A program made the translations under genes and the position numbers. DNA of 64,000 bases, taken from a bacterium. GTDB taxonomy: Bacteria > Hydrothermota > Tepidihabitantia > Tepidihabitantales > Tepidihabitantaceae. Shown in pieces: positions 32,685 to 51,922 of the stretch. The stretch's first letter is position 1; each line of letters opens with the position of its first letter. The notes beneath the pieces are model-generated. The model worked only from the letters and a program-made list of their open reading frames with translations, searched no databases and was not told where the DNA came from. The DNA is taken from assembly GCA_035505375.1 (NCBI GenBank), contig DATJQV010000075.1:83393-147392 (forward strand), in the 5' to 3' direction.

Positions 32685-32689
32685 CTTGC

Positions 32690-32735: not shown

Positions 32736-32744
32736 TTGCATTGC

Positions 32745-35153: not shown

Positions 35154-37976
35154 ATGACAGAATATCTTGACGGATTGATGAACTCCCTGCCGACGGTCAG
35201 GTCCCCGTTCGAGCTGGGCCGGGCCGCGATGAAGGCTTACAAGTGGGACAATGCCATTTTGCTCTTCAGGGTGGCGGCGAAGCAAGGGGCCGGCACCGAA
35301 CTTGTGGCGCTCGCAAACCTGGTCGGGTTGTGCCACGAGCCGCCCGGCAGGTGGCAGGATGCCAAGGAGAGTCACGAGGAATCGGCCAAGCTGGCGGAGC
35401 AGTTTGCCGACCGGTCGGGGAAGGCCGCGGCCTTCACCAATCTCGGGCGGCTGTGCTACGCCAAAGGCGAGCCCGACAAGGCCCTGAAGTACCACGAAGA
35501 GGCCCTGGTCTTGGCGAGCACGCCTCCGAATCCGCAACTGCAGGCCGACAACCTTTGCTGCATCGGCCGCATTGCCCTGTCCAAGGGCGAGCCCGACAAG
35601 GCCCTGAAGAACTTCGAGCAGGCGCTGACGGCGTACCGTGCGGCGAAGTACTGGCACGGCGAAGCAGCCGCCCTCAACGACATCGGGCTGGTTTGCCGCG
35701 CCACCGGCGAGCCCGACAAGGCCCTGAAGCTGCACGAGCAAGCCCTGGCGATTTACCGCGAGATTCACTACCAGCCGGGTGTGGCCGTAACCCTCGGCAA
35801 CATCGGCAATGCGTGCCAGGAGACGGGCAAGGCCGACCGTGCGCTGGAGTCCTTCGAGAAATCGTTGACGATGTCGCGCGATATCGCAAATCTGCAGATT
35901 CAGGCCGACAGCCTCAGCAATCTCGGCCGGGCTTACCTGATCCGACTCGACAACGCCAAGGCACAGGCCAACTTCGAGCAGGCGCTGAAACTGCAGCGCG
36001 GCATGGGCTACCAGACGGGCGTGGCGGCAAGCCTGAACGATTTCGGGCAGCTCTATTTGGCCCTGCGTCAACTCGACAAGGCACTGACGAATTTCGAGCA
36101 GGGGCTGGCGATTGGACGCACGCTGGCAAACCCGCAGTTGCTGGCAGCCAGTCTCACCGGCATCGGCACGGTCTCCCAGGACCGGGGCGAAAACGCCAAG
36201 GCGCTCAAGCACTTTGTACAAGCCCTGCAATTGTTCACTAACATCGGCGCCCGGTCGGGTGTGGAGCAGACTATCAAGCGGCTCAGGCCGCTGACAGCAC
36301 AGATGGGCGTCGACCGATTCCTGGCCGGGTGCGTCGAGGCCGGCATGCCGAAGCCGGAAGCCGAGAAGCTGCTCAGGCAATTGTCGCCAAGGGCCCCGGA
36401 GAAGCCGGCGGCCGCACCCGAGACGCCGGCGCGGCCCGCCAGGGAGGAAGCCGAGGCCAAGGCCCGCGCCGAGGCCGAGCGGGCCAGGCAGGAGGCCGAA
36501 GCCAAGGCGCGCGCCGAAGCCGAGCGCAGGCGGAAAGAAGAAGAACAGCGAATGGCCGCGCAGCGCGCCAAGGAAGAGGCCGAGGCCAGAACGCTGAGCG
36601 ATGCCGAGCGCAAGCGGCGGGAGGAAGAGGAGCGCAAGCGGAGAGAGGAAGAAGCGCGAGCTGCCGCGCAGCGCTCCAAGGAAGAAGCCGAAGCCAGAGC
36701 CCGGGCGGAAGTCGAGCGGAAGAAGAGAGAAGAAGAAGCGCGGATTGCAGCCCAGCGTGCCAGGGAAGAGGCCGAGGCCAAAGCCAAGGCCGAAGCCGAG
36801 CGCCGGCGGAAAGAGGAAGAGCGGAGACTCGCCGAGCAGCGTGCCAGGGAAGAGGCCGAGACCAGGCTCCGCGCCGAAGCCGAGCGCAAGCGGAAAGAGG
36901 ATGAAGCCCGCCGGGTCGCCGAGCAGCGCGCACGCGATGAGGCCGAGGCCAGACTGCGCGCCGAGACGGAGATCAAGCGACTGGCGGAACAGGAACAGCG
37001 GCTCGCCCAGCAACGCATCAAGGAAGAAACCAAGGTCAAGACTCGCCTCGATGGTGAACGCCGGAAAGTCGAGGAAGAAGAACGCCGGCTGGTTGAGGCG
37101 GAACGCAAACTCGTGGAGCGGCGGGGGCAATTGGAGGCCGAGGCCAAGGCCTACGCCGACGCGGAACCCAAGCGTAAGGAAGAGGAGCGCAGGCTCGCGG
37201 AGAGGCGGGCTCAGCTTGAGGCCGAGGTCAAAGCCTACGTCGAAGCCGAGCGTAAGCGGAAAGAGGAAGAAGCGCGGATTGCCGCGCAGCGCGCCAAGGA
37301 AGAAGCCGAGGCCCGAGCCCGTGCCGAGGCCGAACGCAAGCGGCGAGAGGAAGAGGAACGTAGGAAGCGCGAAGAGGAACAGCGCGCGCGGGAAGAGGCC
37401 GAAGCCAGAGCACGGGTCGAGGCCGAACGCAAACGACTCGAGGAAGAGGAACGCAACCTGAAGGAGAAGCGAGCCCGGCGGCAGGCCGAGGCCAAGGCCC
37501 GCGCCGAAGAGGAACGCAAGCTCGCGGAGCAACTCGCCAAAGAGGAAGCCGACGCCAAAGCCCGCGCCGAAGAAGAGCGCAAGAAGCTCGAGGAAACGGA
37601 GCGGAGGTTCGCCGAGCGCCGCGCCAAGGAAGAGGCGGAGGCCAAGGCCCGAGCCGAGGCCGAACGCAGGCTGGCCGAACTTCGCGCCAAAGAGGAAGCC
37701 GAGGCCAAAGCCCGCGCCGAGGCCGAACGCAAGCTGAGCGAACTGCGTGCCGAAGAGGAACGCAAGATCGCCGAGCACCGTGCCCAGTTGCAGGCCCAGT
37801 CCCAGGCCCGTGCCGACAAGGAACGCAGGCGTGCCCAGTTGGAGGCGGAGGCCAAGGCCCGAGCTGAGGCCGAGCGTAAGGAAGAAGAGGAAGAGGAGCG
37901 CCGCCTCGCCGAACGGCGCGCAAAGCTGGAGGCGGAGGCCAAGGCCCGCGCTGAACGCAAGACGACGCGCGGATAA
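35154..37976 (+). CDS. TPR-repeat protein with ~520-aa C-terminal E/R/K/A-rich single-alpha-helix-like domain
   Basis: Eight or more TPR units in the N-terminal 400 aa (GEPDKALKxxEQAL periodicity). From ~36400 there are quasi-periodic EAEAKARAEAERKRKEEE repeats. The antiparallel 1026-aa ORF is a shadow. Confidence 0.75.
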   Translation: MTEYLDGLMNSLPTVRSPFELGRAAMKAYKWDNAILLFRVAAKQGAGTELVALANLVGLCHEPPGRWQDAKESHEESAKLAEQFADRSGKAAAFTNLGRLCYAKGEPDKALKYHEEALVLASTPPNPQLQADNLCCIGRIALSKGEPDKALKNFEQALTAYRAAKYWHGEAAALNDIGLVCRATGEPDKALKLHEQALAIYREIHYQPGVAVTLGNIGNACQETGKADRALESFEKSLTMSRDIANLQIQADSLSNLGRAYLIRLDNAKAQANFEQALKLQRGMGYQTGVAASLNDFGQLYLALRQLDKALTNFEQGLAIGRTLANPQLLAASLTGIGTVSQDRGENAKALKHFVQALQLFTNIGARSGVEQTIKRLRPLTAQMGVDRFLAGCVEAGMPKPEAEKLLRQLSPRAPEKPAAAPETPARPAREEAEAKARAEAERARQEAEAKARAEAERRRKEEEQRMAAQRAKEEAEARTLSDAERKRREEEERKRREEEARAAAQRSKEEAEARARAEVERKKREEEARIAAQRAREEAEAKAKAEAERRRKEEERRLAEQRAREEAETRLRAEAERKRKEDEARRVAEQRARDEAEARLRAETEIKRLAEQEQRLAQQRIKEETKVKTRLDGERRKVEEEERRLVEAERKLVERRGQLEAEAKAYADAEPKRKEEERRLAERRAQLEAEVKAYVEAERKRKEEEARIAAQRAKEEAEARARAEAERKRREEEERRKREEEQRAREEAEARARVEAERKRLEEEERNLKEKRARRQAEAKARAEEERKLAEQLAKEEADAKARAEEERKKLEETERRFAERRAKEEAEAKARAEAERRLAELRAKEEAEAKARAEAERKLSELRAEEERKIAEHRAQLQAQSQARADKERRRAQLEAEAKARAEAERKEEEEEERRLAERRAKLEAEAKARAERKTTRG

Positions 37977-38078: not shown

Positions 38079-38240
38079 TTGACACGTGAGGGAGAATCGT
38101 GTCTAATCAGAAGGTCGGACACGAGCCCGGTGGTTGAGATGGCCGTGCGAGCTCGAAGCCGACGTCCGGCTGCAAGGGGAGGCCGGTCGGACGCCACATA
38201 AGCGATGAAGCCTCCAACTGGTTCTCTATGAGGAGGAAAG
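38079..38240 (+). promoter_or_regulatory. promoter (TTGACA-17-TCTAAT) plus conserved ~125-nt leader of paralog A
   Basis: The leader shares the core GCCGAC(A/G)TCCGGC(T/C)GCAA(G/C)(A/G)GGAGGCCG...CGCCTCC with the four downstream paralog leaders. Confidence 0.55.
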
Positions 38241-41078
38241 ATGCGCAAGACTGTGATGGCTATCATGCTCTCAATGGCGATGCTGGCAACAGCAGGCCTC
38301 GCGAACACCGCGACCGGCACAGCCGGAATGCCCAATCGGAGCCCGGTCATTCGGCCGATCCCGAAGCCGATCCCGGTGGTGCAGGCGCACGCTCCGGCCC
38401 TTTCCATCGCCAACACCACACTCATCCACTGGGACAAGTTCTATGACCGGCACGGCAACCCACTGCCGGCGGGCGCGCCGGAGGACGTCAGCCCAGACTC
38501 GCTCTACTGGAAGGACCTTAACAGCTCCATCTATCTGAAGTCGTCGGCGAAGGTCGCTAGTCCTTCCCCGGCCAACCGTTCAGCCATGTCGTTCCCGGAC
38601 GGTCAGTCCACGGTGTGCATGGACCCGGTCGGCAACTATGTCTACGAGGCAGATGGGGACACACTGTATCGGTTCAGCACGGTTGACGGTTCGATGACGA
38701 CATACACCCTGGCAGATAGCGGTGGATCCGGATGCGCGACCGACGGCCAGTACATTTACTGTCCGAACGGCACGACCATGTACAAGTACACGATGAACGG
38801 GAACTACGTCAGCTCAACCACCACGGACTACACCTGCGATGCTTACTCGATATCCTGCTGCCGGGATACGGTCTGGTTCACCAACGACCGGTACAACGGA
38901 GTGACCCTCTACGGCTATGCCTGCTCGAAGTTCACCGGCGGCAGCATCACGCACGACGCCACCTGGAACGTCGGCACCGGCACCGACGGAGTGGGCAATG
39001 TCGCCTGGGACGGCGTCTACTACTACCTCCCCTGGATTGGCACGAGGCCCATCACGTTCAAGAGATTCTATGCGGACCGGACACTCTACTCGAGCGGCAC
39101 CGTGAGCATCGACTCGCGCGGGGTGATGTGCTCGGTGCAGGGAGCGCGGTCGACGGCGCAGGATTCGCTCTACTGGAAGCTGAATTCCAGCACGACTAAC
39201 CTCTACTCGTCGCCCAAGGCGCAGGAAGTAACCGCGGCCCAGGCCTCGCCGTTTGCCTGGCAGAACAGCCAGACGATATCCTGCATGACCCCGGACGGGC
39301 TGTACATGTTCGAGGTCTACGCCAACAACATGCGCCGGACCAATCTCGCTACCGGCGAGGTAATCAATTACGCCCTTGCCGACTCCAGCGGCGGCGCGTG
39401 CGGAACCGACGGCCAGTATGTCTACGTCCCGAAGGGCACGATGACACGCAAGTACAATTTGACCGGCTCGCTCATCAGCACGACCACTACTGATTACGCA
39501 CCGGTGTTACTTGCCAGCACCTTCGGCTTTGGCGTAGCCAACGACACGGTGTGGCTGACACCAGTGGATACGGGCAAGACCTGGTACGGCTATGCGTGCT
39601 CGAAGTTCACTGGCGGCAGCATTACCCACGATGCGATGTGGTCCACTGTTGGCGGCGCTGTGACTGCGATGACCGTGACTTGGGACGGACAATACTACTA
39701 CATGTGCTGGGGCGGCCACCCCGCTGATACGCTCCTGCGCTTCTACCGCGACCGCACGCTCTACTCGACCGGTACGGTAACCGGCGACGCTCGCAGCGTC
39801 ATGTGCAAGGCGGGGAGCTACCCAGTGATGCTCTGCGAGGCCACCTCCTATCCGGATCACGTCGCGAGTTTCAGCCTGATGCTCGTGGACTCCTCCGGTG
39901 GCAAGTTCGCGGCGGCTGACACGTACCACATCGGCACCAGCGGGCATGACGCGTTCCCGGCTACTGATTGGTACAACCACGGCTACCGCGCGATAATGAC
40001 TTTCACCGACCAGACCCCTACGGATCCGTCCGGTCTGGGCGACAGCATGGCACGGTTCATCCAACTGGGCGGTGGCGTTGTTGAGGCCACATTCTCGGAC
40101 TGCACGAACTGGCAGATAACCGGTAACTGGCGCTTGATGTACGCCCCATTCACAGTGCAGAGCGCGTCCTTCTCTTCGGGCACCATGGGAACGGTGCACC
40201 AGCCGCTCCATCCGGTCATGCTCGGCGTGTCCGCGCTCAGTGTAGGCGACTACCGCAGCGGCAACACCGACAGCACTCTGCGCGGCCAGCATTCAGTCTG
40301 TCTCTCCGAGTATACTGACGGCAACATATGCCTTGCCGCGTGCTTCGATAGCGCGGGTCAGCGTGCGCTCTCGATCGGCATGGACCCCATGGATTACTGG
40401 ATCACGCCCACCACCGGCCAGTGGTGCAGGCTGATGGTGAACGCACTTGACTGGGTTGCGGTCGGGCCCAGCGTGGGCGTGACCGCGCCGAATGGCGGCG
40501 AGACCTGGGATGTCGGCTCGGTCCACAATATCACCTGGACCCAGACCGCCAACGGCGTCAGTGATTCTATCTACTACTCGACCGACGGCGGTGCGAGCTG
40601 GACCGGCGTGACCTGGTTCGCCGCTCCGCCGAGTCCGCTCCAATACGCCTGGACCGTTCCCAACGATACCACCAAGCAGGCCCAGGTGAAGCTTGTGACC
40701 TGGAATTCGGACGGCGGCAGGGTCGAGGACGCAAGCGACGCCGACTTCACGATCGCGCCGCCGATGGCAGTCGAACAGCCTCGGAACAGCGCCTTGCCGC
40801 TGGTGTTCGCGCTGCATCAGCCCCAGCCGAACCCGGCAACGTCAGGCGCAACAGTCCGCTACGACCTGCCGCGACCGGCGCAGGTCGAGCTGAGCATCTA
40901 CGATGTGTCCGGCGCGCTGGTGCGGCGGCTCGTGCGCGGAGCGCAGACCGCCGGTTACCGGAGCGCGTACTGGAACGGGACCGACAGTCGCGGCCGTGCC
41001 ATCGCGCCCGGCGTGTACTACTGCCGGTTCACGGCCGGCGACTCTCATGCGACACAGAAGCTGGTCGTGCGGAGATAG
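38241..41078 (+). CDS. large secreted T9SS-sorted surface protein, paralog A (internally duplicated N-module)
   Basis: Signal peptide. Two copies of the WDKFYDRHGNPLP...CSKFTGGSITHDA module. A GPI-anchor-like/Ig module (TAPNGGETWD...SIYYSTDGGASWTG). C-terminal sorting domain (RYDLPRPAQVELSIYDVSGALVRRL...GVYYCRF). Confidence 0.7.
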   Translation: MRKTVMAIMLSMAMLATAGLANTATGTAGMPNRSPVIRPIPKPIPVVQAHAPALSIANTTLIHWDKFYDRHGNPLPAGAPEDVSPDSLYWKDLNSSIYLKSSAKVASPSPANRSAMSFPDGQSTVCMDPVGNYVYEADGDTLYRFSTVDGSMTTYTLADSGGSGCATDGQYIYCPNGTTMYKYTMNGNYVSSTTTDYTCDAYSISCCRDTVWFTNDRYNGVTLYGYACSKFTGGSITHDATWNVGTGTDGVGNVAWDGVYYYLPWIGTRPITFKRFYADRTLYSSGTVSIDSRGVMCSVQGARSTAQDSLYWKLNSSTTNLYSSPKAQEVTAAQASPFAWQNSQTISCMTPDGLYMFEVYANNMRRTNLATGEVINYALADSSGGACGTDGQYVYVPKGTMTRKYNLTGSLISTTTTDYAPVLLASTFGFGVANDTVWLTPVDTGKTWYGYACSKFTGGSITHDAMWSTVGGAVTAMTVTWDGQYYYMCWGGHPADTLLRFYRDRTLYSTGTVTGDARSVMCKAGSYPVMLCEATSYPDHVASFSLMLVDSSGGKFAAADTYHIGTSGHDAFPATDWYNHGYRAIMTFTDQTPTDPSGLGDSMARFIQLGGGVVEATFSDCTNWQITGNWRLMYAPFTVQSASFSSGTMGTVHQPLHPVMLGVSALSVGDYRSGNTDSTLRGQHSVCLSEYTDGNICLAACFDSAGQRALSIGMDPMDYWITPTTGQWCRLMVNALDWVAVGPSVGVTAPNGGETWDVGSVHNITWTQTANGVSDSIYYSTDGGASWTGVTWFAAPPSPLQYAWTVPNDTTKQAQVKLVTWNSDGGRVEDASDADFTIAPPMAVEQPRNSALPLVFALHQPQPNPATSGATVRYDLPRPAQVELSIYDVSGALVRRLVRGAQTAGYRSAYWNGTDSRGRAIAPGVYYCRFTAGDSHATQKLVVRR

Positions 41079-41124
41079 CGGGCGTGTAGACAGCAGACAG
41101 TAGACAGGATACAGCACAACGGTC

Positions 41125-41153
41125 GGGGCGAGCTTCGGCTCGCCCCTTGGTTT
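41125..41153 (+). terminator. GC hairpin + T-tract terminator after paralog A
   Basis: GGGGCGAGC-TTCG-GCTCGCCCC followed by TTGGTTT. Confidence 0.55.
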
Positions 41154-41203
41154 GACACCGGCCGCGCGAGGCGTGCAGAGCCCGAATCACCGACTGGTCT
41201 GGC

Positions 41204-41366
41204 TTGACAGCATAGGGACGCGAGTGTTTAATGAGACACGCTCGCACGAGCTCGGTGGTCGAGATTGGCCACCGCTGGTCTGCAGCCGGCGTCCGGCTGC
41301 AAGAGGAGGCCGACCGGACGTCGCACAGGCGTTGTCGCCTCCAGTTCGGTTCGCCAAGGAGGAAGA
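41204..41366 (+). promoter_or_regulatory. promoter (TTGACA-17/18-TTTAAT) plus conserved leader of paralog B
   Basis: Near-identical to the other four leaders. Confidence 0.55.
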
Positions 41367-43517
41367 ATGCCCAAGACGGTGATAGCTCTGATGCTACTAG
41401 TCGTGACGCTCGCCCCGACCGGGTTGGCGGCTACGACCGGACTGACCGCGAACCCGGTTTCGGAAGCTTCAGTTCAGTCTACCACTGGCCCGACCTGCCA
41501 GGCCGCAAGGCAGGCATTGGCCTCAGCACCCGCGCGCGCAGTTGTTCACTGGGAAAGGTCCTACGACCGACACGGCAACCCGCTGCCGGGTGGGCCGCAG
41601 GAGAACGTCGGCACCGACTCGCTCTACTTCAAGAACTACTACTCGCTGACGGCCCTGTTGGGTAGCCCTAAGTCGGAGGTCCCGAATCCAACCCCGGAGA
41701 GCTGCGGGCCGGCGTTCGCATGGCAGCTCAACCAGACCTCGGTCGGGATGGACCCGTTCGGCAACTACTGCTACGAGGTGTACAGCACCACGCTGCGCCG
41801 GACCAGCACGGCTGACGGCAGCCACACGGACTATACTATCGGACACGGTTACTGGGCGTGCGGCACTGATGGCAGCTACGTCTATGCACCGGTCGGCGAT
41901 ACAGTCTTCAAGTACACGCTGACCGGCACGTTGGTGAGCTCGACACTGCTCGACGTTACTCCGACATGGTACGAGTTCTCGGTGGCGAACGACACCGTCT
42001 GGTGCGCCCCCGGAGACAGCATACTGCATGGCTACGCCTGCTCGAAGTTCAGCGGCGGTTCGATAACGACCGACGCGACCTGGAACGTCGGTGCCGGCAC
42101 CAATACTCCGGCGCTGGTGGGGTGGGATGGCCGCTACTACTACGTATCCTGGGACGGGCAGACGTCAAATACCTTCAAGCGGTTCAACGCCGACCGGACC
42201 CTCTCGGCCAGCGGGATGATCAGCATCGACACGCGGGGCGTGATGTGCAAGCGGGGTAGCTACGGGGTGAAGGTCTGCCATGGCTCGTGGCATCCTTCCT
42301 ATCTGGCGAGTCTGCGTCAGATGCTCCTCGACTCCTGCGGCGGGAAGTTCGCAGCGGTCGACACGTACGACATTAGCTTAGGAGCCCACGCCACGTTCCC
42401 GGCGACCGAGTGGTATGACGGTGGCTATCGGGCGATACTGGTGTTCACCGACGACAATCCCCAGGATTCCATCGCGCTGGGCGATTCCCTCGCGCGGTTC
42501 ATACAGCTCGGCGGCGGCGTGGTTGAGGCCGTATTTGCGGACCAGCCCAAAAACGACGTCCGGGGTGAGTGGCGTTCCGTGTATGCTCCATTCAGCATCG
42601 AGAGCACGTCCTACTCTGCCGGGTCCATGGGCACGGTACATCAACCGCTACACCCGATAATGACGGGAGTCTCCGCACTGACGGTCGGCAGCTTCCGCAC
42701 TGGCAACAAGCCCGGCACGCTGCGTAGCGCCAACTGCGTGAGCCTGGCGGAGTACACGGACAACAACTGTGTCGCCACCTGCTTTGACAGCGCGGGCCAG
42801 CGGGCCGTCTCCCTTGGCACAAACCCGGAGGTGTACTGGCTCTCGTCGGCTTCCGGCCAGTGGTGTCGGCTGATGGTGAACGCGCTCAACTGGACTGCGG
42901 TCGGGCCCAGCGTGGGCGTGACGGCGCCGAACGGCGGCGAGACCTGGGATGCCGGCACGGTCCACAACATCACCTGGACCCAGACCGCCAACGGCGTCAG
43001 CGACTCGATTTACTACTCGACCGATGGCGGTTCATCCTGGATTGGTGTGACTTGGTTCGCCGCACCGCCGAGCCCGCTCCAGTATGCCTGGACAGTCCCG
43101 AATACACCGAGCACACAGGCTCGGGTCAAGGTTGTGACTCGGGACGCGGACGGCGGCAGGGTCGAGGACGCAAGCGACGCCGACTTCACGATCGCGCCGC
43201 CGATGGCACTCGAACAGCCTCGGAACAGCGCCTTGCCGCTGGTGTTCGCGCTGCATCAGCCGCACCCCAACCCGCTGGCGTCGGGTGCACAAATCCGTTA
43301 TGACCTGCCGCGCCCAACGCAGGTCGAGCTGAGGATCTACGACGTGTCGGGTACGCTCGTGCGGCGGCTGGCGGGCGGAGCGCAGACCGCCGGTTACCGG
43401 AGCGCGTACTGGAACGGGACCGACAGCCGCGGCCGGACGGTCGCGCCTGGTGTGTACTACTGCCGGTTCACGGCCGGCGACTTCCGCGCGACACAGAAGC
43501 TGGCCGTGCGGCGGTAA
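41367..43517 (+). CDS. large secreted T9SS-sorted surface protein, paralog B
   Basis: Start at ATG 41367 after an AAGGAGG RBS, where the signal peptide MPKTVIALMLLVVTLAP begins. Same domain order as A, D and E. Confidence 0.7.
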   Translation: MPKTVIALMLLVVTLAPTGLAATTGLTANPVSEASVQSTTGPTCQAARQALASAPARAVVHWERSYDRHGNPLPGGPQENVGTDSLYFKNYYSLTALLGSPKSEVPNPTPESCGPAFAWQLNQTSVGMDPFGNYCYEVYSTTLRRTSTADGSHTDYTIGHGYWACGTDGSYVYAPVGDTVFKYTLTGTLVSSTLLDVTPTWYEFSVANDTVWCAPGDSILHGYACSKFSGGSITTDATWNVGAGTNTPALVGWDGRYYYVSWDGQTSNTFKRFNADRTLSASGMISIDTRGVMCKRGSYGVKVCHGSWHPSYLASLRQMLLDSCGGKFAAVDTYDISLGAHATFPATEWYDGGYRAILVFTDDNPQDSIALGDSLARFIQLGGGVVEAVFADQPKNDVRGEWRSVYAPFSIESTSYSAGSMGTVHQPLHPIMTGVSALTVGSFRTGNKPGTLRSANCVSLAEYTDNNCVATCFDSAGQRAVSLGTNPEVYWLSSASGQWCRLMVNALNWTAVGPSVGVTAPNGGETWDAGTVHNITWTQTANGVSDSIYYSTDGGSSWIGVTWFAAPPSPLQYAWTVPNTPSTQARVKVVTRDADGGRVEDASDADFTIAPPMALEQPRNSALPLVFALHQPHPNPLASGAQIRYDLPRPTQVELRIYDVSGTLVRRLAGGAQTAGYRSAYWNGTDSRGRTVAPGVYYCRFTAGDFRATQKLAVRR

Positions 43518-43556
43518 GCAGACAGCATTCAGTAGGCAGTAGACAGGATACAGGTC

Positions 43557-43579
43557 GGGGCGGCCTGCGGGCCGCCCCT
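43557..43579 (+). terminator. GC hairpin terminator after paralog B
   Basis: GGGGCGGCC-TGCG-GGCCGCCCC, preceded by a TAGACAG repeat array. Confidence 0.5.
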
Positions 43580-43707
43580 GACCGTCATGGCGGCGTTGAT
43601 AAGAAGGGAGCGGTGCACGGTCCACGGTGTACGGTTCACGGATAGCGGCCTGAGGCTTGAGCTTGTGCTTGAGCTGCGACGCAGTCGCCATGGCGGGGCT
43701 GGCTTTG

Positions 43708-43865
43708 CTTGACAGCTTGTCGTGCTGGGTGTTTAATGAGGCGGCTTTGCACGAGCGCAGCGGTAGGAATCGTCTGCTACCGGCTCGCAGCCGACATCCG
43801 GCCGCAACAGGAGGCCGGCCGGACGCCGCAAGAGGAGTTCCGCCTCCGGTCATCGGGGAGGATAT
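43708..43865 (+). promoter_or_regulatory. promoter (TTGACAGC...TGTTTAATGAG) plus conserved leader of paralog C
   Basis: Shares the SD-like GGAGGC, the anti-SD-like GCCTCC and the true SD GGGGAGG triad. Confidence 0.55.
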
Positions 43866-46322
43866 ATGCTCAGAGTGAGGATGTTCCTTGTGGCAGTGCT
43901 CGCTGCCGTCGGGTTCGCGGCAACGACCGGGTTGACCGCAAGGCCGGTTTCAAGCACGGCCATTCAGCCTAATCCGACGTCCGTGATGCACGGCGTGGTC
44001 GCGGGAGGTGAGCGTCCGGTTGTTCACTGGGACAGGTTCTACGACCGGCCCGGCGGCCCGCTGCCCGCCGGCCTGCCGAGGAACGTCAGCACGGACTCGC
44101 TCTACTGGAAGCTGTACAGCAGCACCACATACCTCTATTCATCACCCAAGGCGGATAGCGTGACCCCGGGCGACTCAACGGCGTTAGCCTGGCAGAACGA
44201 GCAGACCATACCGTGCATGACCCCGGACGGCCACTACGTCTTTGAGGTGTACGCCTTGACCATGCTGCGCACCAATCTGACTACCGGCGCGGTGGATACC
44301 TTTGCCCTCGCCGATGCAAGCGGCGGCGCGTGCGGCACCGACGGTCACTACGTTTACGTCCCGAAGGGTACCACGACGCGCAAGTACACACTTGACGGAG
44401 CCCTGGTGAGCGCTACCACGACCGACGACTCGTGCTGGGTCGCCGCCAGCACCTTCGGCTTTGGTGTGGCCAACGACACGGTGTGGCTTACCCCGTCCAG
44501 CGCGGGCACGACCTGGTACGGCTATGCCTGCGCCAAGTTCGTCGGCGGCAGTATCACCCACGACGCGACGTGGCCCACGATTGGCGGCTCGGGTGATGCG
44601 ATGTCCTTGACCTTCGACGGCCAGTATTACTTCATGACCTGGGGCGGCTACGCCAAGGATACGCTCCTGTGCTTCTACAAAGACCGTACACTCCACTCGA
44701 CCGGCACGGTGCACGCCGACGCCCGGAGTGTGATGTGCAAGACGGTTGGCTACGGAGTCATGATCTGCCACGGCTCGGGAAACCCCTCATACGTCGGCGG
44801 ACTGGGTCAGATGCTTGAGGATTCATCCGGCGGGAGGTTCGCGGCGGTCGACACCTACTTCATCGGCACCGGTGGACACGCCACGTTTCCGGCCACGGAC
44901 TGGTATGACCTCGGCTATCGGGCGATACTGACGTTCACAGACTACTCTCCCGAAGATGCGGCCACGCTGGGCGACAGCCTCGCCCGATTCATTCAACTGG
45001 GCGGCGGCGTTGTGGAGGCCACATTCGCGGATGCCTCCGGCTATCAAATCGCCGGGAATTGGCGCTCCACGTATGCGCCTTTCACCGTCCAGAGCGCCTC
45101 CCTCACTCCCGGCACGATGGGCACGATCCACCAACCGCTCCACCCGGTGATATCGGGTGTGTCGGCAATCACCATGGACAACTTCCGCACCGGCAATACA
45201 CCCGGCACCCTGCGCAGCACCAGCTGCGTCGGCCTGGCTGAGTACACGGATAGCCACTGCCTCGTGGCATATTTCGACAGCGCCGGCCAGCGTGCCGCCT
45301 CCCTGGGCATGTTCCCGCTGACGTACTGGCAGGATACGGCCGCCGGTCAGTGGTGCCGGCTGATGGTGAACGCGCTCAACTGGGCTGCAGTCGGGCCCAG
45401 CGTGGGCGTAACCGCGCCGAACGGCGGCGAGAGCCTGTATGCCGGCACGGTCCACAACATTACCTGGACCCAGACCGCCAACGGAGCCAGTGATTCAATC
45501 TACTACTCGACCGATGGCGGTGCGAGCTGGACCGGCGTAGCCTGGTGCGCCACTCCGCCGACGCCGCTCCAGTACGCCTGGACCGTTCCGTTCGCGCCGA
45601 CCACGCAGGCCCGGGTCAAGGTTGTGACCTGGGATGGCGACGGCGGCAGAGTCGAGGACAAGAGCGACGCCGACTTCACCATCGTGGTGCCGTCCCACGA
45701 CGTCGGCGTGACCCAGATAATCCAGCCGGTAGACACGGTTGACTCGGGCATGGTCGTCGTGCCGACTGCGGTGGTGAAGAACTTCGGCGGCGTACAAGAG
45801 ACTTTCCCGGTGCGATTCAGCATCGGTGGCAGCTACACGCACGACACGACGGTGACAGTCGGCTCGGGCGTGACCGACACCGTCGCCTTCCCCCAGTGGG
45901 TGGCCGGTCCGGTCGGCACGTTCGAGGTCCGCTGTTCGACCCGGCTGGGGTCGGACGTAAACAATGCCAACGACCGGGCCACGGACACGGTTGTGGTGAA
46001 GCCGTCAGGCGGCATTGAGCAGTCGAAGAACAACGCTTTGCCTCGGGCGTTCGCCCTGCACCAGCCGTACCCTAACCCGCTGGCGTCGAGTGCGCTAATT
46101 CGATACGACCTGCCGTGCCCAACGCAGGTCGAGCTCAGGATCTACGACGTGTCGGGTACGCTCGTGCGGCGGCTGGTCGGCGGAGCGCAGACGGCCGGTT
46201 ACCGGAGCACGTACTGGAACGGGTGCGATGACCGTGGCCGGATGGTCGCGCCCGGCGTTTACTACTGCCGGTTTGCAGTAAGCGACTTCCGCGCGACACA
46301 GAAGCTCGTCGTGCGGAGATAG
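43866..46322 (+). CDS. large secreted T9SS-sorted surface protein, paralog C (with CARDB-like domain)
   Basis: Signal peptide. Conserved family modules. A CARDB-like domain (HDVGVTQIIQPVDTVDSG...NNANDRATDTVVV). C-terminal sorting domain. Confidence 0.7.
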   Translation: MLRVRMFLVAVLAAVGFAATTGLTARPVSSTAIQPNPTSVMHGVVAGGERPVVHWDRFYDRPGGPLPAGLPRNVSTDSLYWKLYSSTTYLYSSPKADSVTPGDSTALAWQNEQTIPCMTPDGHYVFEVYALTMLRTNLTTGAVDTFALADASGGACGTDGHYVYVPKGTTTRKYTLDGALVSATTTDDSCWVAASTFGFGVANDTVWLTPSSAGTTWYGYACAKFVGGSITHDATWPTIGGSGDAMSLTFDGQYYFMTWGGYAKDTLLCFYKDRTLHSTGTVHADARSVMCKTVGYGVMICHGSGNPSYVGGLGQMLEDSSGGRFAAVDTYFIGTGGHATFPATDWYDLGYRAILTFTDYSPEDAATLGDSLARFIQLGGGVVEATFADASGYQIAGNWRSTYAPFTVQSASLTPGTMGTIHQPLHPVISGVSAITMDNFRTGNTPGTLRSTSCVGLAEYTDSHCLVAYFDSAGQRAASLGMFPLTYWQDTAAGQWCRLMVNALNWAAVGPSVGVTAPNGGESLYAGTVHNITWTQTANGASDSIYYSTDGGASWTGVAWCATPPTPLQYAWTVPFAPTTQARVKVVTWDGDGGRVEDKSDADFTIVVPSHDVGVTQIIQPVDTVDSGMVVVPTAVVKNFGGVQETFPVRFSIGGSYTHDTTVTVGSGVTDTVAFPQWVAGPVGTFEVRCSTRLGSDVNNANDRATDTVVVKPSGGIEQSKNNALPRAFALHQPYPNPLASSALIRYDLPCPTQVELRIYDVSGTLVRRLVGGAQTAGYRSTYWNGCDDRGRMVAPGVYYCRFAVSDFRATQKLVVRR

Positions 46323-46366
46323 TAGGGAGTAGACAGCAGACCGTAGACAGTAGACAGGATACAGGT

Positions 46367-46389
46367 CGGGGCGGGCTTCGGGCCGCCCC
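46367..46389 (+). terminator. GC hairpin terminator after paralog C
   Basis: GGGGCGGGC-TTCG-GGCCGCCCC. Confidence 0.5.
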
Positions 46390-46505
46390 TGACCGTCATG
46401 GCGGCGTTGATAAGAAGGGAGCGGTGTACGGTTCACGGATGAAGGCCTGAGGCTTGAGCTTGTGCTTGAGATGCGACGCGGTCGCTATGGCGGGGCTGGC
46501 TTTGC

Positions 46506-46663
46506 TTGACAGCGTATGGACGCGGGTGTTTAATGAGGCGGCCTTGGACGAACGCGGTGATCGGAATTGTCTGCCACCGGTTCGCAGCCGACATCCGGCC
46601 GCAACAGGAGGCCGACCGGGCGTCGCGCAAAGAATCCCGCCTCCGGCTAATCAGAGAGGGAAG
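46506..46663 (+). promoter_or_regulatory. promoter plus conserved leader of paralog D
   Basis: TTGACAGCGTATGGACGCGGGTGTTTAATGAG, then the same leader core. Confidence 0.55.
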
Positions 46664-49162
46664 ATGCCCAGAGTTGTGATAGTTCTGGTATTCAGTGCCG
46701 CGATGTTGGCCACGGCCGGATTCGCCAGCAACAATAGTCTCACCGCGGCGGGCGCCAGCCCGCTTGCTCGGTCGACCCCCGCGCCAAACCCGGCGTCTGC
46801 GGCGTGGGCCGCGCTTCCCGGGAACGCGGGTCCGACGACCATTCACTGGGACAAGTTCTACGACCGGTCCGGGAAAATGCTGTCCGGCGGCCGGGGAGAG
46901 GCGGTTGGCGCCGAATCGCTCTACTGGAAAGACTACAACGACTCTGCCCACCTGAAGTCGTCGCCGAAGGTCCAGAATCCGTCTCCGACCAATCGGACGG
47001 CGATGGCGTTCCACGACCAGCAGTCCACCACGTGCATGGACCCGACCGGCGACTATGTCTATGAGGTAGGCGGCACCAGCCTGTACCGGTACAGCACGGT
47101 TGACGGTTCAATGATGACCTACACCCTTGCATACACGGGCGGGATTGGCTGCGCGACCGACGGCCAGTACATTTACCGGCCGCGCGGCGCCAGCAGCAAG
47201 ACCATCGACAAGTACACGATGACCGGGACCTTCGTCGACTCGACCACAACTGACGTGAGCTGTGACGCATACTCGATATCCTGCTGCCGGGACACGGTCT
47301 GGTTCACCAACAATCGGTCCAGTCCCGTGACTCTTTACGGCTACGCCTGCTCCCGGTTTGCCGGCGACAGCATCAACTACGATGCCACGTGGGACGTCGG
47401 CTCCGGTAACTCCAGCGTCGGCCCGGTTACGTGGGACGGTTACTACTTCTATCTGACCTGGATCGGCACGACCAACGCTACGTTGAAGCGGTTCTACGCC
47501 GACCGGACGCTCTATTCGACCGGCACGGTAAGCATCGACCCGCGCGCCGTGATGTGCAGGAAGAGCGCGTCGTTCAAGGTGCTGTTCGCCGGGACCGAGG
47601 GCGACAATCCTACCCTTCAGGCCCAAATCGTGAGCGCTTCGGGCGGCCAGATAACCTCGGTCGACTACTTCGCCGCGCGCAACGGGCCCCTGCCGGCGTA
47701 TGCTCTCTACCAGCAGGGCTACCGGGTGATAATAACCTTTGGCGGCAACTACCTCTGGGGCAGCGGCGACATATTCGGCGACAGCCTGGCGGCGTTCGTT
47801 GACCTGGGTGGTGGGGCGCTGAATATGACCTATACGACATGCGCCGGTGGCGACTGGTGTATCGGCGGCCGGTACAAGGACCAGTACATGCCGGTGCCGA
47901 CCGTGACCTATGACAACGTCCACTGTCCTTCAATTACCATCCTTGATTCGCTACACCCGATAATGAACGGGGTCACGGCAATCGGCAACTTCACGTGCGA
48001 GCCCTACACGATGGACGTTCGCTCTCCGACATACTCCGTGCGGCTTGCGAACTGGGACGTCACCAATTCCTACATCGAGTGTGCTGCGTTCGATTCCGGC
48101 GGCAGGCGCACCGTGTTCCTCGGCTACCACCCGAACTACAACCCGGGCGGGACCGGCCAGTGGCTCACCCAGCTCGTCAACGCCCTGATTTGGATGGGCA
48201 ATCCGGTTCTCGACGCGAATGTGACCGTGCCGAATGGCGGCGAGAACTGGGTGACCGGTTCGGTCCACAACATCGCGTGGAGCCAGACCAGCAATGGCAT
48301 CAAGGACTCGATCTACTACTCGACCGACGCCGGCGCGAGCTGGACCGGCGTGGCCTACTATGACCCGCCGCCGGCACCACTCCAGCATGTCTGGACCGTT
48401 CCGTCCACGCTGACCTCGCAGGCGCGGGTGAAGGTAGTGACCTGGGACACCGCCGGCGTCAGAGTCGAGGACGCGAGCGACTCCGACTTCACTATCGCGG
48501 CGCTGGTCCACGATGTCAGTGTCCTGCAGGTTATCCAGCCGGTGGACACGGTGGACTCCGGTACGACCGTGGTGCCGACTGCGGCGGTGAAGAACTTCGG
48601 CCAAGTGCAGGAGACCTTCCCGCTCCGGTTCAGCATCGGCGGTTTCTACACAGCCGACACATCGGTTACAATCGACCCCGGCATGACCGACACCGTCGCC
48701 TTCCTCCAGTGGGTGGCCGGTCCGGTCGGCGCGCACGCGGTCCGTTGCTCAACACGCCTGGATTCAGACCAGAACAGTGACAACGACTATACAGCGGGCA
48801 TGGTCGTTGTCGTGCCGCCGCCGCCCGGCATCGAGCAGTCCAAGAGCAGTGCATTGCCGCGAGTGTTCGCGCTGCATCAGCCCCGGCCGAACCCGTCAAC
48901 GTCGGGGGCGCAAATCCGCTACGACCTGCCGCGGTCGGCGCACGTCGAGCTGAACATCTACGGCGTGTCGGGTACGCTCGTGCGGCGGCTGGTCGGCGGA
49001 GCGCAGACGGCCGGTTACCGGAGCGCCAACTGGAACGGGTGCGATGACCGTGGCCGGATGGTCGCGCCCGGCGTGTACTACTGCCGGTTCACGACCGGCG
49101 ACTTCCGGGCCGGGCAGAAACTGGTCGTGGGAGATAGTAGGGAAGTAGACAGCAGACGGTAG
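46664..49162 (+). CDS. large secreted T9SS-sorted surface protein, paralog D (with CARDB-like domain)
   Basis: Start at ATG 46664, where the signal peptide MPRVVIVLVFSAAMLATAG begins. The N-module is closest to paralog A. Confidence 0.7.
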   Translation: MPRVVIVLVFSAAMLATAGFASNNSLTAAGASPLARSTPAPNPASAAWAALPGNAGPTTIHWDKFYDRSGKMLSGGRGEAVGAESLYWKDYNDSAHLKSSPKVQNPSPTNRTAMAFHDQQSTTCMDPTGDYVYEVGGTSLYRYSTVDGSMMTYTLAYTGGIGCATDGQYIYRPRGASSKTIDKYTMTGTFVDSTTTDVSCDAYSISCCRDTVWFTNNRSSPVTLYGYACSRFAGDSINYDATWDVGSGNSSVGPVTWDGYYFYLTWIGTTNATLKRFYADRTLYSTGTVSIDPRAVMCRKSASFKVLFAGTEGDNPTLQAQIVSASGGQITSVDYFAARNGPLPAYALYQQGYRVIITFGGNYLWGSGDIFGDSLAAFVDLGGGALNMTYTTCAGGDWCIGGRYKDQYMPVPTVTYDNVHCPSITILDSLHPIMNGVTAIGNFTCEPYTMDVRSPTYSVRLANWDVTNSYIECAAFDSGGRRTVFLGYHPNYNPGGTGQWLTQLVNALIWMGNPVLDANVTVPNGGENWVTGSVHNIAWSQTSNGIKDSIYYSTDAGASWTGVAYYDPPPAPLQHVWTVPSTLTSQARVKVVTWDTAGVRVEDASDSDFTIAALVHDVSVLQVIQPVDTVDSGTTVVPTAAVKNFGQVQETFPLRFSIGGFYTADTSVTIDPGMTDTVAFLQWVAGPVGAHAVRCSTRLDSDQNSDNDYTAGMVVVVPPPPGIEQSKSSALPRVFALHQPRPNPSTSGAQIRYDLPRSAHVELNIYGVSGTLVRRLVGGAQTAGYRSANWNGCDDRGRMVAPGVYYCRFTTGDFRAGQKLVVGDSREVDSRR

Positions 49163-49183
49163 ACAGTAGACAGGATACAGGTC

Positions 49184-49205
49184 GGGGCGGCCTCCGGGCC
49201 GCCCC
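49184..49205 (+). terminator. GC hairpin terminator after paralog D
   Basis: GGGGCGGCC-TCCG-GGCCGCCCC. Confidence 0.5.
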
Positions 49206-49327
49206 TGACCGTCATGGCGGCGTTGATAAGAAGGGAGCGGTACTCGGTCCACGGTGTACGGTTCACGGACAGCGGCTTGAGCTTGTGCTTGAGCTGCGAC
49301 GCAGTCGCTATGGCGGGGCTGGCTTTG

Positions 49328-49486
49328 CTTGACAGCGTATGGAGGCGCGTGTTTAATGAGGCGGTCTCGCGCGAGCGCGGTGGTCGGAATTGTCTGTCAC
49401 CGGCCCGCAGCCGACATCCGGCCGCAACGGGAGGCCGACCGGACGCCGCGAGATGAGTTCCGCCCCCAGTCCAGCAGGGAGGATGT
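49328..49486 (+). promoter_or_regulatory. promoter plus conserved leader of paralog E
   Basis: TTGACAGCGTATGGAGGCGCGTGTTTAATGAG, then the same leader core. Confidence 0.55.
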
Positions 49487-51922
49487 ATGCGCAGAATGCC
49501 CGTGTTTCTTGTCTCGGTGCTCGCCTTGACTCCGCTCGCGACCGGCCTGATCGCAAAGCCGGTTTTAAGCACAGCCATTCAGTCTGCTCCGAGGCCCGCA
49601 GGGCAGGCGGTGGTCGTAGAACCAGCGCGTACTGTTGTTCAATGGGACAGGTTCTACGACCGACATGGGAACCCGCTGCCGGAAGGGTCACAGGAAGACG
49701 TCGGCACCGACTCGCTCTACTTCAAGCAGTACAACGTGACCGATATCCTCTACGGGTGCCCCAAGTCACAGGCCCCGAATCCGACTCCGGCCGACTGCCG
49801 GCCGGCGTTTGCGTGGCAGAATAGCCAAACGGTGGCCTGTATGGACACGGCGGGCGTCTATGCCTACGAGGTCTACAACACCAACCTGCGGCGGACCAAA
49901 ACGGATGACGGGACGTACACCGATTACACAATCGCCAACGGATACTGGAACTGCGCGACCGACGGTGACAACCTTTACGTCCCGGTCAGCAACGTCGTGT
50001 ATAAGTACACGTTCACCGGGACCCTGGTTGATTCCACGGCCCTCGACATTACTCCGGCGTACTACGAATTCTCGGTAGCAAACGACACTGTCTGGTGCGG
50101 GACCGGTTCCGACACGATCCTCAAAGGTTACGCCTGCTCGAAGTTCACCGGCGGTTCGCTAACGCCGGACGCCACGTGGGACGTGGGCGCCGGCACCGCA
50201 TCCCCGGCCCAAGTCGCCTGGGACGGCCAGTACTACTACGTTTCCTGGGCGGGGTACGCCTCCAACACCTTCAAGCGGTTCAACCCTGACCGAACCCTCT
50301 CGGCCAGCGGGACGATAAGCATCGACACGCGCGGCGTGATGTGCAGGAAGAGCGGTTACACGGTCATGATTTGCTTCGCCGACCCGTACTTCTACGATGT
50401 TGACAGTCTGGGGCAGATGCTGGCGGACTCATCCGGCGGGAAGTTCACAGCGGTTGACACATACAACATCGCCACGCATGCCACTTTCCCGGCCACGGAC
50501 TGGTACAACAGCGGCTGTCGGGCGATACTGGCGTTCACAAACTACTCTCCCGCGGATTCGGCCGCGTTCGGCGACAGCCTCGCCCGGTTCATTCAACTGG
50601 GCGGCGGCGTTGTGGAAGCACCGTTCGCATCCGACCATGGATCTGAGATCACGGGAGCATGGCGCTCGACGTATGCGCCCTTCACTCTTCAGAACGACGT
50701 CCTGGCTCCCGGCACGATGGGCACCATCCACCAGCCGCTCCACCCGATAATGTCGGACGTGACGGCCCTCTATTTGAGCGACTGGCGCGCGGGCAACACT
50801 CCCGGTACGCTGCGCAGCGCTAACTGCGTGAGCCTGGCCGAATACACCGATAGTTTCTGCGTCGCCGCTTGCTTCGACAGCGCGGGCCAGCGTGCCGCCT
50901 CCCTGGGTTTCTATCCACTGGACTACTGGCGTTCAACTGCCACCGGGCAGTGGTGCCGGCTATTGGTGAACGCGCTCAACTGGACCGCGGTCGGGCCCAG
51001 CGTGGGTGTGACCGCACCGAATGGCGGCGAGAGTTGGGATGCCGGCACGATCCACAACATCACCTGGACCCAGACGGCCAATGGGGTCAGCGATTCAATC
51101 TACTACTCGACCGACGGCGGTGCGAGCTGGACCGGCGTGACCTGGTTCGCCACTCCTCCGGCCCCGCTCCAATACGCCTGGACCGTTCCGTTCACGCCGA
51201 CCACGCAGGCCCGGGTCAAGGTCGTTACCTGGGATGGCGACGGCGGCAGAGTCGAGGACAAGAGCGACGCCAACTTCACCATCGTGGCGCAGGCCCACGA
51301 CGTCGGACTACTGAGTATTATCCAGCCGGTAGACACGGTCGACTCGGGCACGGCCGTCGTGCCGACCGCGGTGGTGAAGAACTTCGGCGGTGTCCAGGAG
51401 ACCTTCCCGGTGCGGTTCAGCATCGGCATGCTCTACACGCATGACACCACGGTGACAATCGCTTCGGGCGTGACCGACACCGTCGCCTTCACGCAGTGGA
51501 TAGCCGGTCCGGTCGGAGTGTTCGTTGTTCGGTGCTCGACCCGGCTGGACGCCGACACCAGCCATGCCAACGACCGCGCCATGGACACGGTCGTGGTGAA
51601 ATCGTCCTCCGGCATTGCTCAGGCCGGGAACGGTGCCCTGCCGCTCGTGTTCGCTCTGCACCAGCCGCACCCGAACCCGCTGGCCACGGGCGCTCATATC
51701 CGCTACGACTTACCGCGGCCGACACAGGTTGAGCTGCGAATCTACGGCGTGTCGGGTACGCTCGTGCGGCGGCTGGTCGGCGGAGCGCAGACGGCCGGTT
51801 ACCGGAGCGCGTACTGGAATGGGTGCGATGACCGTGGCCGGATGGTCGCGCCCGGTGTGTACTACTGCCGGTTTGCAGCTAGCGACTTCCGCGCGACACA
51901 GAAGCTCGTCGTGCGGAGATAA
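49487..51922 (+). CDS. large secreted T9SS-sorted surface protein, paralog E (with CARDB-like domain)
   Basis: AGGGAGG RBS. Signal peptide. The N-module is closest to paralog B. Confidence 0.7.
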   Translation: MRRMPVFLVSVLALTPLATGLIAKPVLSTAIQSAPRPAGQAVVVEPARTVVQWDRFYDRHGNPLPEGSQEDVGTDSLYFKQYNVTDILYGCPKSQAPNPTPADCRPAFAWQNSQTVACMDTAGVYAYEVYNTNLRRTKTDDGTYTDYTIANGYWNCATDGDNLYVPVSNVVYKYTFTGTLVDSTALDITPAYYEFSVANDTVWCGTGSDTILKGYACSKFTGGSLTPDATWDVGAGTASPAQVAWDGQYYYVSWAGYASNTFKRFNPDRTLSASGTISIDTRGVMCRKSGYTVMICFADPYFYDVDSLGQMLADSSGGKFTAVDTYNIATHATFPATDWYNSGCRAILAFTNYSPADSAAFGDSLARFIQLGGGVVEAPFASDHGSEITGAWRSTYAPFTLQNDVLAPGTMGTIHQPLHPIMSDVTALYLSDWRAGNTPGTLRSANCVSLAEYTDSFCVAACFDSAGQRAASLGFYPLDYWRSTATGQWCRLLVNALNWTAVGPSVGVTAPNGGESWDAGTIHNITWTQTANGVSDSIYYSTDGGASWTGVTWFATPPAPLQYAWTVPFTPTTQARVKVVTWDGDGGRVEDKSDANFTIVAQAHDVGLLSIIQPVDTVDSGTAVVPTAVVKNFGGVQETFPVRFSIGMLYTHDTTVTIASGVTDTVAFTQWIAGPVGVFVVRCSTRLDADTSHANDRAMDTVVVKSSSGIAQAGNGALPLVFALHQPHPNPLATGAHIRYDLPRPTQVELRIYGVSGTLVRRLVGGAQTAGYRSAYWNGCDDRGRMVAPGVYYCRFAASDFRATQKLVVRR

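Follow-up and report, generated by a model that had tools for sequence, protein, structure and literature searches.

A conserved leader upstream of a secreted-protein gene family in WOR-3-type bacteria as a candidate Shine-Dalgarno-sequestering module

The 64,000 nucleotides of contig DATJQV010000075.1 (assembly GCA_035505375.1) analysed here, hereafter the window, derive from an uncultured bacterium near candidate division WOR-3 and contain five tandem same-strand paralogs, A to E, that span window positions 38241-51922 (+). Each paralog is preceded by a leader of ~130 nt that carries its Shine-Dalgarno sequence (SD), a complementary GCCUCC and, further upstream, an SD look-alike, GGAGGC. What keeps these leaders alike, and do they act on translation? 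A preliminary description of the locus had read the three segments as SD, anti-SD and anti-anti-SD of a translational riboregulator. The triad proved to be conserved and masking of the SD is predicted, but covariation is absent and the folding energy is ordinary. The reading we favour, and which we rate as an even call, is a cis-acting module for translational control by SD sequestration, new by sequence and known in its logic.

The five leaders run from a -10-like hexamer (38102, 41227, 43732, 46529 and 49352) to the base preceding the ATG (38241, 41367, 43866, 46664 and 49487 for A to E). From the promoter-like sites described below we infer a 5' untranslated region (UTR) of roughly 100-130 nt, of which the last ~75 nt would be the conserved element. 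The sequence GGAGGCCG is unchanged in all five leaders. GCCTCC follows 26 nt 3' of GGAGGC in A-D, with GCCCCC in its place in E, and the SD is GGAGG (AGAGG in D), ending 4 nt 5' of the ATG. All three segments lie where the preliminary description had placed them, and a 26-nt degenerate core pattern, TCCGGCNGCAANNGGAGGCCGNNCGG, matches 5 times in the window versus 0.00 expected from 100 shuffles. The longer form CGCCTCC, earlier assigned to every leader, is found with its preceding base in B, C and D only, A having GCCTCC alone. The range 43708-43865 comprises the -35 box through the final leader base of paralog C, for which the features are:

43709-43737, + strand: promoter-like site, with TTGACA at 43709-43714, a 17-nt spacer and TTTAAT at 43732-43737
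43738-43794, + strand: variable 5' part of the leader, with the semi-conserved block CGAGCGCAGCGGUAG and local hairpins
43787-43805, + strand: GCAGCCG-ACATC-CGGCCGC hairpin, which competes with hairpin S1 for CCGGC
43795-43802, + strand: 5' arm of hairpin S1, CATCCGGC
43803-43815, + strand: loop of S1, CGCAACA followed by the SD-like decoy GGAGGC at 43810-43815 (the 'anti-anti-SD')
43818-43825, + strand: 3' arm of hairpin S1, GCCGGACG
43826-43841, + strand: spacer from S1 to the anti-SD, 16 nt, fixed in length and variable in sequence
43842-43847, + strand: anti-SD GCCTCC, near-invariant, complementary to GGAGGC and to the SD
43857-43868, + strand: SD and start of paralog C, with GGAGG at 43857-43861 and ATG at 43866-43868

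Proteins homologous to the paralogs (44-70% identity) occur in WOR-3-type metagenome-assembled genomes and metagenome contigs, with the same promoter and core upstream of their genes. A metagenome pattern scan gave, among the matches listed, 119 stretches, from which those with promoter, SD and family gene were kept. Most of the 119 were chance matches in GC-rich DNA. The covariance model and search that the preliminary description had proposed were carried out with model R1, which consists of the core plus the SD and was used to separate true copies; it split them cleanly, at 60-100 bits versus at most 22 bits for everything else. At least 24 distinct copies were recovered in this way. They stem from 8 or more WOR-3-related genomes or contigs, a single genome often having several, and the 64-kb window contains exactly five sites. 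Among the matches listed, every true copy lies directly upstream of the same secreted-protein family. The element is missing altogether, rather than decayed, in distant homologs of 31-46% identity (L134, L135, L136, L199 and L202), and two other genes in the window for type IX secretion system (T9SS) cargo have no leader element either. As judged by these searches, the element is confined to a narrow clade of uncultured bacteria and a single protein family. With Rfam 15, the whole window gave 0 matches at gathering thresholds, and at E up to 10 (11.7 kb, and leader C alone) only microRNA and small RNA (sRNA) models at chance level appeared, with 8-24 bits, far below gathering. The leader element is outside all described RNA families and undescribed in Rfam. 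A mobile or viral origin was rejected, as viral contigs gave zero matches to the core pattern. The other leaders in the window are laid out as follows:

38079-38243, + strand: promoter, leader and start of paralog A, with the -35 box at 38079-38084 and the -10 box at 38102-38107
38163-38170 and 38186-38193, + strand: arms of S1 in leader A, with GGAGGC at 38178-38183, GCCTCC at 38210-38215, SD at 38232-38236 and ATG at 38241
38153-38243, + strand: covariance-model match of paralog A, 81 bits
41204-41369, + strand: promoter, leader and start of paralog B, with the -35 box at 41204-41209 and the -10 box at 41227-41232
41290-41297 and 41313-41320, + strand: arms of S1 in leader B, with GGAGGC at 41305-41310, GCCTCC at 41337-41342, SD at 41358-41362 and ATG at 41367
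41280-41369, + strand: covariance-model match of paralog B, 80.7 bits
46506-46666, + strand: promoter, leader and start of paralog D, with the -35 box at 46506-46511 and the -10 box at 46529-46534
46592-46599 and 46615-46622, + strand: arms of S1 in leader D, with GGAGGC at 46607-46612, GCCTCC at 46639-46644, SD AGAGG at 46655-46659 and ATG at 46664
46582-46666, + strand: covariance-model match of paralog D, 88.8 bits
49329-49489, + strand: promoter, leader and start of paralog E, with the -35 box at 49329-49334 and the -10 box at 49352-49357
49415-49422 and 49438-49445, + strand: arms of S1 in leader E, with GGAGGC at 49430-49435, anti-SD GCCCCC at 49462-49467, SD at 49478-49482 and ATG at 49487
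49405-49489, + strand: covariance-model match of paralog E, 89.4 bits

Does this similarity require a function at all? The preliminary description had argued that it does, because the coding sequences (CDSs) were far more diverged than the leaders. This holds for the N-terminal and central CDS, which is mostly 42-80% identical compared with 56-87% for the leaders, but the last ~900 nt of the CDS are 63-100% identical and thus match or exceed the leader in conservation. Pairwise identity along the five CDSs forms a mosaic with highly conserved ends (A resembles C at alignment columns 1200-1700, as B does E, and C resembles E at 1900-2200), the pattern expected if recombination or gene conversion shuffles the variable middle domains of a surface-protein family. 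In C, D and E the DNA 5' of the promoter, 82-95% identical, is even more alike than the leader. Given the conserved CDS ends, the mosaic and the upstream DNA, the conservation argument fails within the window, and all three features could be read as leaders without function that resemble each other through recent duplication and gene conversion among paralogs.

The comparison across genomes contradicts such a neutral origin. Where the products of a gene pair share less than 50% amino-acid identity over their first 190 residues, the leader core (columns 65-117 of alignment A7, variable spacer included) is 79% identical. In the same pairs four-fold synonymous sites reach 49-55%, the 5' leader segment 41-48% and the stretch linking anti-SD to SD 45-47%. 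Since the core stays at 79% while synonymous sites and the rest of the leader are near saturation, duplication alone, which the preliminary description had named as the outcome that would overturn its case, is ruled out as the explanation, and the alignments indicate that the core is under purifying selection. The fixed spacing described below and the distant homologs, which lack the element instead of carrying decayed versions, also speak against an absence of function, which we regard as hardly credible. The step from conservation to function therefore did not stand on the window alone, but selection on the core supports it once the other genomes are added.

The conservation has a distinct form. 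The core contains ~32 near-invariant nucleotides, including loop bases such as UGCAA, with GCA and GGAGGCC invariant in 23 copies. The loop segment from S1 to GGAGGC measures 6-7 nt. Of the 22 copies measured, 18 have 16 nt between S1 and GCCUCC and three have 15 nt, in a spacer whose sequence is poorly conserved. The gap from GCCUCC to GGAG is 9-11 nt in 20 of these copies and that from GGAG to the start codon 5 nt in 21. Upstream, the 5' part of the leader varies between 30 and 63 nt from the -10 hexamer to the conserved hairpin. Fixed spacings with varying sequence favour a constraint at the RNA level. So does the most divergent copy (L203, 59.9 bits), where the decoy reads CCGGGG and the anti-SD reads CCCCGG, still with 6 complementary bases; it keeps S1 and a GGGAGG SD, and pairing between UCCC and the GGGA within the SD is still possible. 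This coordinated change is a single natural example and not statistics.

Some copies precede genes of another build. In L004 (8359-9741) and in L131 the leader stands before a shorter protein of 460 aa that differs in its N-terminal region but shares the C-terminal part, so that the leader appears to travel with promoter, signal peptide and C-terminal module and not with one protein architecture. In L197 (9389-12193) and L203 (5516-8277) the family gene is split by a stop or frameshift into a short N-terminal open reading frame (ORF) and a long ORF, with the leader preceding the first fragment; these split genes may be pseudogenes or assembly errors.

Which helices are conserved was assessed by counting pairs for four candidates in alignment A7, which holds 23 distinct full leaders. 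Hairpin S1, CAUCCGGC with GCCGGAYG enclosing UGCAA-NN-GGAGGC-CG (columns 65-72 and 88-95), is paired in 89.7% of cells and has one compensated position, A-U to G-C in 2 copies. The helix between GGAGGC and GCCUCC (columns 80-85 and 112-117) is almost invariant, with 98.6% of cells paired, and that between anti-SD and SD (columns 113-117 and 134-138) is paired in 92.2%, which bears out the earlier claim that the CGCCTCC element complements both partners. The preliminary description had also put forward the GCAGCCG-ACATC-CGGC(C/T)GC hairpin. It is present in the five leaders of the window, in B as a perfect 8-bp stem (GCAGCCGG-CGT-CCGGCTGC), but its outer four pairs fail outside the window lineage: over columns 57-63 and 69-75 only 72.8% of cells are paired, with the outer pairs persisting in 5 to 15 of 23 copies. 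We rejected it as a conserved helix; S1 is conserved instead. The RNAalifold consensus is S1 plus the anti-SD:SD hairpin.

The leaders were folded in both conformations, as the preliminary description had suggested, and the masked state was favoured. In the predicted ensembles the mean probabilities are 0.61 for S1, 0.55 for the anti-SD:SD helix, 0.19 for the GCAGCCG...CGGCYGC hairpin and 0.16 for an unpaired SD. The SD is unpaired at 0.17 in real leaders versus 0.37 in dinucleotide shuffles of the upstream sequence, and in silico replacement of GCCUCC by A5 raises this to 0.47. From the folding ensemble, GCCUCC is predicted to mask the SD by default. Relative to the minimum-energy fold, forcing the decoy helix costs ~4 kcal/mol on average and nothing in B and L127; B is also the only copy whose minimum-energy fold joins the GCAGCCG hairpin with a nested GGAGGC:GCCUCC helix. 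With such small energy gaps, masked and decoy states would both be energetically reachable.

A plausible account of leader structure and regulation, which we offer as a proposal, is the following. In the resting state GCCUCC, ~10 nt 5' of the SD, would pair with it and keep translation low. The hairpin CAUCCGGC ... GCCGGAYG, 16 nt 5' of GCCUCC, would present the look-alike GGAGGC in its loop, and this decoy could capture GCCUCC over 6 bp, either as a pseudoknot with S1 intact or as a nested helix once S1 opens. Pairing of decoy and GCCUCC would release the true SD. What tips the balance might be a partner acting in trans, be it a protein, an sRNA or the 30S subunit, or the order of co-transcriptional folding. 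One of these, rather than temperature or a metabolite, is suggested by the extra invariant bases that surround the decoy and by the element's confinement to one family.

Several results weigh against this account. The minimum folding energies are what the composition would lead one to expect (z of -0.36 and of -0.58 versus shuffles), the nested GGAGGC:GCCUCC helix has a mean probability of 0.06 in folding restricted to nested pairs, and the pseudoknot, with S1 kept and loop GGAGGC paired with GCCUCC, is by a crude estimate ~3.6 kcal/mol less stable than the masked state. S1 contains an A.C mismatch at columns 66/94, its one compensated position, in 10 of 23 copies and C.A at columns 72/88 in six, and five copies have a GGAGA-type SD that forms only 4 bp with the anti-SD. 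The covariation check named in the preliminary description came out negative: none of the four candidate helices covaries beyond its shuffled controls, shuffles equalling S1, the decoy helix and the anti-SD:SD helix in 308-464 of 500, and the RNAalifold covariation term is 0.04 with zero compensated pairs. The leader sequences are too alike for this test to have much power. Further, the usual A is missing from position 2 of the putative -10 hexamer. Of what marks an SD-sequestering leader, a complementary anti-SD nearby and a competing anti-anti-SD, kept after change in L203, are both present, while helices backed by compensatory changes are not, shuffled controls doing equally well.

Two specific forms of control named in the preliminary description found no support. 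RNA thermometers are defined by weak or non-canonical pairs. Like ROSE and fourU, the leader has an SD masked by an upstream complementary segment in a hairpin; unlike them, it gives no Rfam match, and its masking helix consists of 5 perfect, mostly G-C pairs with a gradual predicted opening (SD unpaired 0.14, 0.17, 0.22, 0.33 and 0.44 at 20, 37, 50, 65 and 80 °C). For a riboswitch, no aptamer or ligand can be named, and unlike genes under metabolite riboswitches those downstream form one secreted-protein family. Stems of the leader show no significant covariation and all 24 copies precede a single family with T9SS domains, which is not what a metabolite riboswitch would show.

The closest known logic is that of the thiM thiamine pyrophosphate (TPP) riboswitch, in whose expression platform an anti-SD has two alternative partners, the SD (off) and an upstream anti-anti-SD (on) (PMC2018614). 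Both systems use three short 5' UTR segments, GCCUCC here being able to pair with GGAGGC or the SD. The leader differs in having no TPP or other known aptamer (Rfam negative), in carrying its anti-anti-SD in a hairpin loop where that of thiM is in the aptamer stem, and in preceding genes for secreted surface proteins, not metabolic genes.

Alternatively, the 55-nt core (GGAGGC-loop hairpin, 16-nt spacer and GCCUCC) could be a pseudoknotted sensor RNA, riboswitch or protein-responsive, that switches on the T9SS surface-protein family in WOR-3-type bacteria. Its near-invariant loop and junction nucleotides would then form a binding pocket for a signal not yet tied to RNA sensing. The core resembles preQ1-II, SAM-II/V and guanidine-III riboswitches in its size of ~55 nt, a possible H-type pseudoknot at the ribosome-binding region and highly conserved loop nucleotides. 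Unlike these, it has zero matches to their covariance models even at E up to 10, its candidate pseudoknot would free the SD rather than bury it, and the linked genes are non-metabolic. We think a sensor of this kind unlikely.

The look-alike GGAGGC need not be a decoy. The upstream GGAGG could dock the 30S subunit through the 3' end of 16S rRNA and so act as an mRNA stabiliser or ribosome standby site, where the docked subunit would shield a highly expressed surface-protein mRNA from 5'-to-3' decay or wait to enter the partly masked SD. A precedent is the STAB-SD of Bacillus thuringiensis cry3A, an SD-like, 16S-complementary sequence that lies within the 5' UTR of a very highly expressed gene, far upstream of its true start (PMC4113751). 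In agreement with such a role, GGAGG, a perfect SD-like sequence, is invariant ~55 nt 5' of the real SD in 23/23 canonical copies (GGGG in L203) and is predicted to lie accessible within a hairpin loop; promoter and SD are of strong consensus, and surface proteins are likely abundant. The cry3A element, however, adjoins the mature 5' end and needs no anti-SD partner, whereas the leader's GGAGG would be ~60-75 nt from the start of the predicted UTR, barring processing of the transcript, and is accompanied by complementary GCCUCC and a hairpin. Docking leaves the invariant GCCUCC, the fixed 16-nt spacer and the conserved stem unexplained, and GGGG of L203 fits 16S worse yet complements its changed anti-SD. 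We consider a stabiliser or standby role unlikely, but worth keeping in view. A further difference from STAB-SD is that an AUG or GUG follows 8 nt after the leader GGAGG in about half of the copies. A conserved upstream ORF starting from GGAGG-N8-AUG was rejected, since the triplet is AUG in 11 of 22 copies, GUG in 1, ACG in 9 and GCG in 1, and the ORFs differ in length and frame.

That sequence rather than compensating pairs is conserved (~32 near-invariant nucleotides) and that the element is limited to one gene family would also fit a platform whose primary sequence is recognised by a regulator acting in trans, either a CsrA-like protein or an sRNA, so that internal anti-SD pairing is secondary. 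Known CsrA targets have a GGA in a hairpin loop plus a GGA at the SD. In the leader the S1 loop contains AAC(N)GGAGG and the SD region contains CAGGGAGG, an arrangement shared with CsrA/RsmA leaders such as B. subtilis hag, where a second GGA overlaps the SD, and binding could repress or activate translation. The leader differs from these in its internal anti-SD and in conserving far more sequence than GGA motifs, as CsrA sites normally conserve little past GGA. No conserved neighbouring regulator recurs across the loci, and tblastn with two CsrA queries against the window and the fetched loci gave 0 hits, although this DNA is a small fraction of the genomes and says little. Such a platform as the main function seems doubtful to us.

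Finally, S1 is also a near-perfect conserved palindrome at the DNA level, and the inverted repeat TCCGGC-N15-GCCGGA could be an operator: a dimeric transcription factor bound there would act downstream of the promoter, either to block transcription or to activate it, and the SD-like sequences would be incidental. One-sided changes point in this direction: those of the A.C type (19 cells) outnumber G.U-type wobbles (7), which is not the expectation for an RNA helix. Against an operator, the 'spacer' of the palindrome is conserved as much as its arms, the conserved features are strand-specific and the site would lie ~60-100 bp downstream of the predicted start, adjoining the ribosome-binding site. 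Nor would an operator account for GCCTCC or for its constant spacing from repeat and SD. We judge the operator very unlikely.

Two further pairings were noted in the alignment. A possible long-range helix joins the 5' block GG(U/C)GG with GCCGC just past S1 (A7 columns 29-33 with 95-99; in the window, for C, about 43760-43765 with 43825-43829). It has 3 pairs changed on both sides, reached in 1/500 shuffles, and was found post hoc by a scan of all column pairs. In constrained folds it is on average ~9 kcal/mol more costly than S1 enforced by itself, and local hairpins compete with it, so it is predicted to be thermodynamically disfavoured. In addition, an inverted repeat CAGAACUG-UGA-UAGUUCUG covers CDS +5 to +23, the signal-peptide codons R-T-V-I-V-L (D, 46668-46686; also L198, L200 and L127), and L039 keeps it with three pair-preserving changes. 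The corresponding hairpin was not predicted consistently and was set aside as a probable by-product of conserved signal-peptide codons.

For the leader to act as RNA it must be transcribed. All five paralogs have the motif CTTGACA-N17-(G)TGT(C/T)TAAT ~133 nt 5' of the ATG, and all 24 leader copies are preceded by TTGACA-N17-T(C/T/G)TAAT, which in L203 begins with TTGACT. Instead of A, these 24 copies have C, T or G as the second base of the -10 hexamer, and since a consensus promoter scan demands A there, it made no call. Each of the five paralogs ends in a GC-rich hairpin. The promoter-like motif upstream and the hairpin at the 3' end of every gene point to five separate transcription units with long 5' UTRs, each with its own sigma-70-like promoter and inferred transcription start. 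The 17-nt spacer between -35 and -10 (43715-43731 and equivalents) is G/purine-rich and semi-conserved across genomes (GGGAAGACGG, GGGGAGGGG; L001, L004, L024, L065, L079 and others), which is unusual for sigma-70 and may reflect overlap with a regulator site. Further upstream, at about 35 nt from the -35 box, ~3.5 copies of GCTTGA are present in paralogs C, D and E (43655-43675, 46452-46470 and 49275-49295). They belong to the block that is 82-95% identical among the three, and may serve as an upstream promoter element or bind a factor.

If SD sequestration by the leader is borne out, it would be an undescribed cis-regulatory RNA motif from a candidate phylum without a cultured model, giving copy-by-copy control of a multigene T9SS surface-protein family and a first handle on post-transcriptional control in WOR-3. 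As a compact (~75 nt), self-contained module of SD, anti-SD and decoy it could perhaps be reused in heterologous or cell-free systems. A note of caution applies: the element is clearly selected, yet neither covariation nor the folding-energy z-score, the customary computational indicators of a structured RNA, comes out in favour, and conservation through binding of a partner at the sequence level, the ribosome included, is a live alternative.

The genes downstream of the leaders encode products of 716-945 aa with a signal peptide and a C-terminal FlgD_ig/T9SS sorting domain, matching Pfam FlgD_ig and NCBIfam TIGR04183. A structure model of paralog C (mean pLDDT, the predicted local distance difference test, 82.6) shows beta-rich, alpha/beta and Ig-like domains, and its top PDB matches are PorU, PorZ, adhesins and S-layer proteins, which suggests a surface protein. 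The coding sequences are:

38241-41078, + strand: CDS of paralog A
41367-43517, + strand: CDS of paralog B
43866-46322, + strand: CDS of paralog C
46664-49162, + strand: CDS of paralog D
49487-51922, + strand: CDS of paralog E

At or just past the stop codons of paralogs A-D there are tandem heptad repeats AGACAG(T/C) in 4-6 copies (41088-41116, ~43520-43555, 46317-46357 and 49144-49173), each followed by the GC-rich hairpin GGGGCGG-CTTCGG-CCGCCCC. In D the repeat enters the end of the CDS and alters the C-terminus; downstream of E the arrays are missing. Nearby secreted proteins without the leader are encoded at 56297-58942 (-), 60798-62417 (+) and 30684-34685 (-); they comprise one with CARDB and FlgD_ig, one with Omp28, InhA-MAM and a T9SS tail, and two proteins of DUF3857 plus transglutaminase-like type. 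The gene just 5' of the array (35154-37976, +) encodes a 940-aa TPR-repeat protein, the C-terminal third of which is a Glu/Ala/Lys/Arg repeat (..EAEAKARAEAERKEEEEEE..) that is extremely A-rich, with an AT skew of 0.57.

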